Assembly (NCBI RefSeq): GCF_003334305.1
Contig: NZ_QOWS01000001.1
From: Escherichia coli
GTDB taxonomy: Bacteria; Pseudomonadota; Gammaproteobacteria; Enterobacterales; Enterobacteriaceae
Reading direction: 5' to 3' (one strand)
Length of the DNA stretch: 64,000 nucleotides
Positions 26,098 through 26,417 of this stretch are shown here, in pieces (the stretch's first letter is position 1; each line of letters opens with the position of its first letter). The position numbers and the translations under genes were made by a program. Under the pieces are notes generated by a model. It was not told the origin of the DNA. It did no database searches and was given only the letters and a program-made list of their open reading frames with translations.

Positions 26098-26197
26098 ACC
26101 ATTCAATATCTGACGTACCGGAAGTATCGGACCGCTCCGGTGCGTACAGGTAATCCAGCCACAAATTATATTGCGCCAGTACCTCAGACCTGCCGGG

Positions 26198-26398
26198 CTA
26201 TTGCTTAGTGTTCATGTGTTTATTGGCCTGATTAATCAGTAGCTGTCTTTCTGGTCGTGTGGATCCTGCAAATCCTGAATGGTCGGAAATACCGCAGGCG
26301 GGCTGATTGCCCGCCTTTTTTATCTGTTGTTTCATCCACTGACCAGCCAGGTCAAATAGCGTCTCATGCTCTGCACAACAGAAAATAGTTGCACCCAT
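26198..26398 (-). CDS. small reverse-strand hypothetical ORF in the Z/fun slot (66 aa)
   Basis: Only ORF in the G–FI interval, where P2 carries Z/fun; opposite strand; no recognisable motif. Confidence 0.25.
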   Translation of the reverse strand: MGATIFCCAEHETLFDLAGQWMKQQIKKAGNQPACGISDHSGFAGSTRPERQLLINQANKHMNTKQ

Positions 26399-26417
26399 TA
26401 ACCACGGAGTTAAACGG

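Follow-up and report, generated by a model that had tools for sequence, protein, structure and literature searches.

The 320 bp that separate genes G and FI in the tail module of a P2-like Escherichia coli prophage are very probably made up of four parts, namely the fossil of an inverted tail-fibre assembly gene (here called G'), the fossil of a P2-type gpG, a terminator, and the late promoter P_F with its leader, and hold neither cargo nor a small gene. We have little doubt that it comprises the untranslated 3' end of the tail-fibre operon and, after it, the promoter that serves the tail-sheath operon. All the components are of familiar types (a fragment of a Tfa pseudogene, a remnant of gpG, an intrinsic terminator and P_F), and the locus as a whole represents ordinary, already familiar tail-fibre mosaicism. 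The 66-codon reverse-strand open reading frame (ORF) found there is in all likelihood an accidental stop-free chimera of unrelated pieces.

Gene Order and Anatomy of the G-FI Interval

The window analysed here is a stretch of 64,000 nucleotides from E. coli contig NZ_QOWS01000001.1 (assembly GCF_003334305.1), which carries the tail module of the prophage. The tail genes lie in the order H (24008-25687), G (25687-26097) and FI (26418-27608), followed by FII, E/E' and T; the stop of G at 26097 and the start of FI at 26418 delimit a gap of 320 bp (26098-26417). The features of the locus are the following:

25687..26097, plus strand: G, tail-fibre assembly (chaperone) gene, 136 aa (ORF list)
26069..26253, minus strand: G' fossil, what is left of an inverted tail-fibre-assembly gene, its 3' third (about 61 codons of 148)
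26254..26294, plus strand: gpG fossil, the last 13 codons of a canonical P2-type gpG, RVDPANPEWSEIP (translation and DNA alignment)
26296..26322, plus strand: rho-independent terminator of the V-W-J-I-H-G late operon, hairpin at 26296-26316 plus a T6 run
26323-26417, plus strand: P_F region, with late promoter, leader and FI ribosome-binding site
26324..26350, plus strand: putative P_F late-activator site (Ogr/Delta class), mapped by alignment from the P2 misc_feature (AF063097)
26392-26394, plus strand: predicted P_F transcription start, mapped from the P2 'transcription start site for F operon'
26392..26417, plus strand: FI leader, with the ribosome-binding site GGAG at 26406-26409
26198..26398, minus strand: 66-codon ORF with an ATG start, the sole ORF of at least 60 aa in the gap, in all likelihood a chance chimera and not a gene
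26418..27608, plus strand: FI, tail sheath gene, first in the F operon (ORF list and PGAP)

The first-pass annotation had described a gap of about 320 bp with a 66-aa reverse ORF at 26198..26398, and the ORF list bears out both. Its view that the gap held this ORF alone was right for ORFs of at least 60 aa; two tail-fibre-assembly remnants, the terminator hairpin and P_F had been overlooked.

The gap is a mosaic. BLASTN against 50,697 phage records returned no record covering at least 80% of it, and its parts matched different sequences: 26099-26253 was 74-78% identical to sequences labelled 'tail fiber assembly protein', 26295-26417 was 95-98% identical to the DNA immediately upstream of FI in many P2-like phages, and the G-to-FI junctions of Yersinia phage P37 and Salmonella phage STYP1 matched 26254-26417 and 26277-26417, respectively. 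The segment 25900-26600 is 100% identical in E. coli strain A7 and 99.9% identical in two further strains; used as a query, it recovered the same G-FI architecture from E. coli prophages only, in 34 of 5,426 genomes. An Rfam scan of 25500-27000 (E up to 1) gave no RNA family, with two sub-threshold chance matches only.

The Two Chaperone Gene Fossils

The minus-strand frame at 26069-26299 translates as ACGISDHSGFAGSTRPERQLLINQANKHMNTKQ, a stop, PGRSEVLAQYNLWLDYLYAPERSDTSGTSDIEWSTPPAVQAR and a second stop, with PERQLLINQANKHMNTKQ immediately preceding the internal stop. From ERQLL to its end, this frame is collinear with the C-terminus of the G' protein of phage T22, which closes with ITESERQLLINQANEYMNSKQWPGKAAIGRLKGEELAQYNLWLDYLDALELVDTSGAPDIEWPTPPAVQAR and a stop; PERQLLINQANKHMNTKQ, the stop, PG, a seven-residue gap and RSEVLAQYNLWLDYLYAPERSDTSGTSDIEWSTPPAVQAR in the window align with SERQLLINQANEYMNSKQWPGKAAIGRLKGEELAQYNLWLDYLDALELVDTSGAPDIEWPTPPAVQAR in T22 G' (AGG36537). 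Relative to T22 G', two lesions are evident: TGG has become the nonsense codon TAG at 26198-26200, and 21 bp (7 codons) are deleted in frame near 26185, a loss seen in both the protein and the DNA alignments. Around 87 N-terminal codons are absent, and the fossil contains no complete uninterrupted reading frame with an N-terminal domain, as a functional Tfa member would need. With the internal stop read as W, the translation scores E 8.3e-14 against phrog_188 (tail fiber assembly protein), aligned to positions 122-185 of the 207 in the profile. PGAP annotates 26069-26179 in identical sequence as a pseudogene ('tail fiber assembly protein, incomplete, missing N-terminus') and, in some relatives, a longer pseudogene span 'with internal stop'. 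Judged by these alignments, the G' fossil is a pseudogene fragment of the Tfa/gpG/U family (phrog_188).

The stop of the G' fossil at 26069 places it in a 29-bp overlap with the 3' end of G, and the same 29-bp convergent overlap is found in the G/G' pair of T22 and in e14-type pinE segments of E. coli. Homology to convergent tfa pairs, followed through about 500 E. coli records, always stops at window positions 26250-26257.

The gpG fossil was recognised by comparison with the ends of P2 gpG (SRVDPANPEWPEMPQ) and P37 G (SRVDTANPEWPEIPQ), each followed by a stop codon. The DNA alignment is unambiguous, and E. coli matches at 95% identity fall under 'tail fiber assembly protein'. The gpG stop codon and the next bases (CAATAAAYA) are gone from the window through a 9-10-bp deletion; this piece is still present in relatives L006, L009 and L011. 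At the joint, around 26253/26254, the interior of a minus-strand gene meets the 3' end of a plus-strand gene, with microhomology of a few bases at most, and the joint presumably arose by illegitimate recombination.

The Terminator and P_F

In the terminator scan, the hairpin consists of an 8-bp stem (7 G-C pairs) and a 5-nt loop, followed by the T6 run; its folding energy is -18.1 kcal/mol (z -2.8), and one of 200 shuffles folds as well. In STYP1 and P37, both cargo-free, a homologous hairpin comes directly after the gpG stop, no more than about 6 nt away. The P2 feature from which the activator site was mapped is described as 'activator binding site; activation of pF promoter' (AF063097), and a TGT-N12-CCA element is present at 26328-26345, as in P2. 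The stretch 26295-26417 is 97% identical to L-413C and other P2-like phages, and the terminator and P_F probably have the same functions as in P2.

Two alleles of the P_F region, about 81% identical, occur among P2-like phages, one in P2, T22 and P37 and the other in L-413C, STYP1, 11W and the window. The distribution of these alleles does not track the content of the G-FI slot.

Composition of the 66-Codon Reverse ORF

The ATG of the ORF (26398-26396) lies on the opposite strand, 2 nt downstream of the mapped P_F start, where the plus strand reads CAT. Codons 1 to about 25 run antisense to P_F, codons 26-35 (approximately) to the terminator, and codons 36-48 (again approximately) to the gpG fossil. 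The remaining codons, 49-66 (PERQLLINQANKHMNTKQ), follow the native frame of the G' fossil, and the stop codon of the ORF is the TAG nonsense mutation of that fossil. Since the minus-strand frame aligns collinearly with the T22 inverted tfa gene at its C-terminal end, the last 18 codons of the ORF and its stop belong to the pseudogene. A complete ORF of at least 66 aa arises in 649 of 2000 shuffles of 26040-26450 (32%), and spurious ORFs of 60-166 aa are abundant on the minus strand of the neighbouring plus-strand tail genes. In identical and near-identical E. coli sequences, PGAP annotates the G' pseudogene but not the 66-aa ORF.

The ORF was followed through eight prophages with the same G-FI architecture, where its length is 66, 66, 69, 66 (with a frameshifted patch), 54, 49, 11 and 11 aa; two copies are unchanged, two are altered and four are cut short. 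The 69-aa version carries an in-frame 9-bp insertion, and in the patched one residues 3-11 are replaced via compensating +1/-1 indels. A 2-bp insertion in the T-run causes the frameshift of the 54-aa version, a nonsense codon ends the 49-aa version, and two others end after 11 codons. The two closest relatives sampled, L005 and L007, have the ORF whole and without any change, which says little, as it is expected at >99% DNA identity. The 18 variable sites within the ORF in these same-architecture relatives are distributed 8/7/3 over codon positions 1/2/3, and the changes are non-synonymous in 16 cases and synonymous in 2; the adjacent FI shows 2 non-synonymous and 7 synonymous changes.

Only 21 matches (P0001-P0021), all 'hypothetical' and 45-84 aa long, were returned by a search of 5.8 billion proteins. 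They have their first 28 or so residues in common (MGATIFCCAEHETLFDLAGQWMKQQIKK) and then follow one of three continuations (AGNQPA.., RRAIRPP.. and EKAGNSPA..), which are the three frames through the terminator hairpin, set by changes in T-run length; their tails depend on the DNA lying beyond the terminator. Where the P_F allele is that of P2, T22 and P37 (about 81% DNA identity), the peptide read antisense goes out of frame at residue 3 (MGEWYFQL...). The 66-aa product has no match in Pfam, NCBIfam or PADLOC. The phrog_11095 profile matches residues 1-35 at E 1e-18, and a 45-aa ORF with the same ATG, matching over the first 28-35 or so residues, is annotated in phage 11W (ULG00884). This recurrence, phrog_11095 and the 11W ORF included, is seen because the promoter DNA is conserved, not the protein. 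The 'hypothetical proteins' filed under phrog_11095 or 'FIG00643520' likewise share with the ORF its ATG and about 28-35 initial residues, whereas their C-terminal parts are unrelated and lie in other frames. We consider phrog_11095, together with about 20 'hypothetical proteins' (P0005-P0021; L004 2469-2606), to be probably a family of gene-prediction artefacts.

A scan for sigma-70 consensus promoters found none on either strand of 25600-26900, and the 20 nt upstream of the ATG (CCGTTTAACTCCGTGGTTA) contain no Shine-Dalgarno sequence. The putative mRNA of the ORF has a hairpin of -19.5 kcal/mol within the coding region, at about codons 26-35.

The Forward G and H Genes

Over its C-terminal 76 aa, G shares 78% identity with the G protein of phage T22, and the two differ in their N-terminal domains (BLASTP). 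G matches phrog_188 at E 6.6e-31 and is labelled tail fiber assembly protein by PGAP in the identical sequence of E. coli A7. Residues 1-158 of H are identical to T22 H and the remainder differs; H (24008-25687) is a mosaic host-range protein. It contains a 132-bp tandem repeat in 2.6 copies at 24542-24879 (44-aa tail-fibre repeats) and a long, glycine-rich C-terminal domain at about 25230-25680.

In several close relatives, PGAP flags the forward G as a pseudogene 'missing N-terminus' (L006 1348-1698, L009 172-498, L010 148-498 and L012 148-498, approximately window 25720-26097); in others it calls G intact, with starts equivalent to 25687 or 25720. G is short, at 125-136 aa as against 175-200 aa in P2 and T22, and both its assigned start and its functional state are tentative. 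An imperfect inverted repeat of 18 nt (78%), at 26016-26033 and 26142-26159, reflects the homology of the C-terminal domains that G and the G' fossil encode on their opposite strands, and it could add secondary structure to the 3' untranslated region of the H-G transcript.

The fun(Z) Insertion Point

As the first-pass annotation had correctly stated, P2 carries fun(Z) in its G-FI interval, and this interval is a variable slot in relatives. In P2 (AF063097) the gene lies on the reverse strand, between the gpG stop and the hairpin beside P_F, and other P2-like phages (L-413C and T22) carry different genes there. In relatives of the window, the junction between the gpG stop and the hairpin reads CCGCAATAAATACAGGCGGGC, the same as in the cargo-free STYP1 and P37; at the position of the fun(Z) insertion, these relatives have CCG-CAATAAATA-CAGGCGGGC and the window has CCG-CAGGCGGGC after the small deletion. 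Neither BLASTN against the phage records nor alignment with P2 revealed anything similar to fun(Z) or its flanks in the gap, and no accessory coding gene conserved as coding sequence lies between the position of the gpG stop and P_F. The comparison of G-FI intervals that had been proposed earlier identifies a prophage without a cargo gene in this slot. In these alignments the fun(Z) insertion point is evidently in the empty state, as in STYP1 and P37. The approximately 200 extra bp between G and the hairpin are, on sequence evidence, debris of a tail-fibre module exchange and not shrunken or defence cargo, because H shares only its first 158 residues with T22 H, and G only its C-terminal 76 with T22 G.

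In P2 itself, the hairpin beside P_F is decayed (-11.3 kcal/mol, z -0.08; L014 = AF063097, sites 3520-3550 and 1640-1667), and a separate V-operon terminator is annotated beside fun(Z). The fun(Z) cassette seems to have entered between the gpG stop and the ancestral terminator, with the old hairpin decaying afterwards.

Alternative Explanations and the Origin of the Debris

It is highly improbable that the 66-aa ORF, or its N-terminal part of about 28 aa (phrog_11095), is a real reverse-strand small protein of the lysogen, a minimal moron at the fun(Z) position, even though an ATG-initiated ORF occurs at the same position in many P2-like phages, is annotated by some pipelines, and has the orientation of fun(Z) in P2. 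What is shared corresponds exactly to the antisense strand of the conserved P_F, and this explains the conservation of its DNA; the downstream parts vary in frame and sequence with whatever adjoins the terminator, and with the P2-type P_F allele a different frame is read from residue 3 on. Frameshifts and nonsense codons are present in close relatives, non-synonymous changes outnumber synonymous ones by 16 to 2, and the ORF has no Shine-Dalgarno sequence, sigma-70-like promoter or domain, with the -19.5 kcal/mol hairpin in its coding RNA. What the first-pass annotation had entertained as a minimal, uncharacterised small protein is, in all probability, a chimera that ends at the nonsense mutation of a pseudogene and is broken in four of eight relatives, and the homology search it had proposed for the 66-aa product gave only 'hypothetical' matches, with about 28 shared residues before the frames diverge. 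Signals of expression and conservation as a coding sequence were essentially wanting in the scans and comparisons above. There is likewise only a very slight chance that the recurrent antisense ORF, extended here to 66 aa by fusion with pseudogene debris, is expressed as a small peptide or that an antisense RNA dampens tail-operon expression in the lysogen; in that event, a new C-terminus would have been recruited here from a dead tail-fibre chaperone gene. The other option put forward earlier, that cargo has been lost, would mean that a fun(Z)-type defence cargo once occupied the slot and that its clean excision left the 320-bp interval. Accessory genes are known from this slot (fun(Z) in P2; L-413C), and a hotspot within the P2 tail genes has been described, without detail on empty sites (bioRxiv 10.64898/2026.02.27.708500); the hotspot of Rousset et al. 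2022 (PMC9122126) is the old/tin one, not the G-FI slot. Nevertheless, we find excision unlikely: the gpG-stop/hairpin junction of the relatives is that of the cargo-free STYP1 and P37, the insertion point is as in these empty phages and bears no fun(Z)-type scar, neither fun(Z)-like sequence nor flanks are present, and the hairpin is intact here whereas it is decayed in the cargo-bearing P2.

The simplest route to the present arrangement would be a one-step import of an H(v)-G-G' fragment by illegitimate recombination into gpG. In the resident phage, the terminator and P_F would have come straight after gpG. A new distal part of H, its cognate G and the adjacent 3' part of G' would have been supplied by a donor whose invertible tail-fibre segment was of the Mu-G/P1-C/e14-P type, and the right-hand join, 41 bp before the end of gpG, would have been illegitimate, with the original gpG displaced. 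Possible, though doubtful, is a history in which a full invertible segment (G', the H' variable end and a Din-family invertase) once lay between G and FI and a deletion from mid-G' through the invertase froze the fibre orientation. Precisely such a layout occupies this slot in T22 (G, G' and H' on the minus strand, invertase, FI, and 31-bp inverted repeats), and the window retains the convergent G/G' overlap and 185 bp of G'. However, T22 has no gpG remnant or hairpin between its invertase and P_F, whereas in the window a gpG remnant and a hairpin abut the break in G', an arrangement that a single illegitimate join fits better. Moreover, no T22-type crossover site is left in H or in the window, no intermediate with invertase, gpG remnant and hairpin was met in a non-systematic look at prophages and phages, and this history needs one extra step. 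Import and segment deletion give the same present-day reading, and the ORF is a non-gene either way.

Implications

Tail-fibre genes have long been documented to pass horizontally among P2, P1, Mu and e14-like elements, and such exchange is expected to leave remnants like these; tail-fibre mosaicism in P2, P1, Mu and e14 has been known since the early 1990s (Haggard-Ljungquist et al. 1992; Sandmeier 1994). The two chaperone-gene fossils would constitute a record of a host-range cassette swap into a P2-like phage, with an illegitimate join inside the resident gpG. Surveys of accessory-gene hotspots of P2 should record this prophage as having an empty G-FI slot. Candidate small defence proteins should not include the 66-aa ORF, nor probably any of the ORFs antisense to P_F in the phrog_11095/'FIG00643520' set.

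Comparison with Known Systems

The window and P2 have in common the genes that flank the G-FI interval and the 3' end of gpG, and their P_F activator sites, transcription starts and FI leaders are homologous. The two differ in that the window has no fun(Z) or other cargo, its gpG is cut to 41 bp and functionally replaced by a different G, its hairpin is strong where that of P2 is decayed, and its P_F allele is of the L-413C/STYP1 type (97%), not of the P2 type (about 81%). In STYP1 (KX833211) and P37 (MT239398), the gpG stop is followed by the hairpin within about 6 nt and then by P_F, in G-FI gaps of 128-133 bp, and window 26254-26417 is the same unit of gpG end, hairpin and P_F. Unlike in these two phages, the unit is preceded by a foreign G and a G' fragment and not by a full gpG.

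The G-FI slot of T22 (KC618326) contains G on the plus strand, G' and H' on the minus strand, and a DNA invertase, followed by FI. Perfect 31-bp inverted repeats (GGTCTTCTCGCATACCTTGGTTTGGGAGAAG) at 1430-1460 and 3294-3324 flank its 1.8-kb H(v)-G-G'-H'(v) segment, a complete switch of the Mu-G type located, in this P2-like phage, at the fun(Z) position. In the window, no ORF of at least 60 aa other than the 66-aa ORF lies between G' and FI, the interval shows no similarity to the T22 invertase region, and an adjacent invertase gene is absent. A search of the whole window, allowing up to 3 mismatches, found no T22-type crossover site, 23900-26450 contains no inverted repeat comparable to those of T22, and a loose search for the AAACCNNGGTTT core gave matches at chance level. 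Compared with the Din-family segments (Mu G, P1 C, e14 P with pinE, and T22), the window is without an H' variable exon, an invertase and an inverted-repeat crossover; it shares with them a homologous inverted tfa gene, at 74-81% DNA identity and with a collinear protein, the same 29-bp G/G' overlap, and a convergent tfa pair of which G' survives as a fragment only. The G' fossil is a relic, not a working switch.
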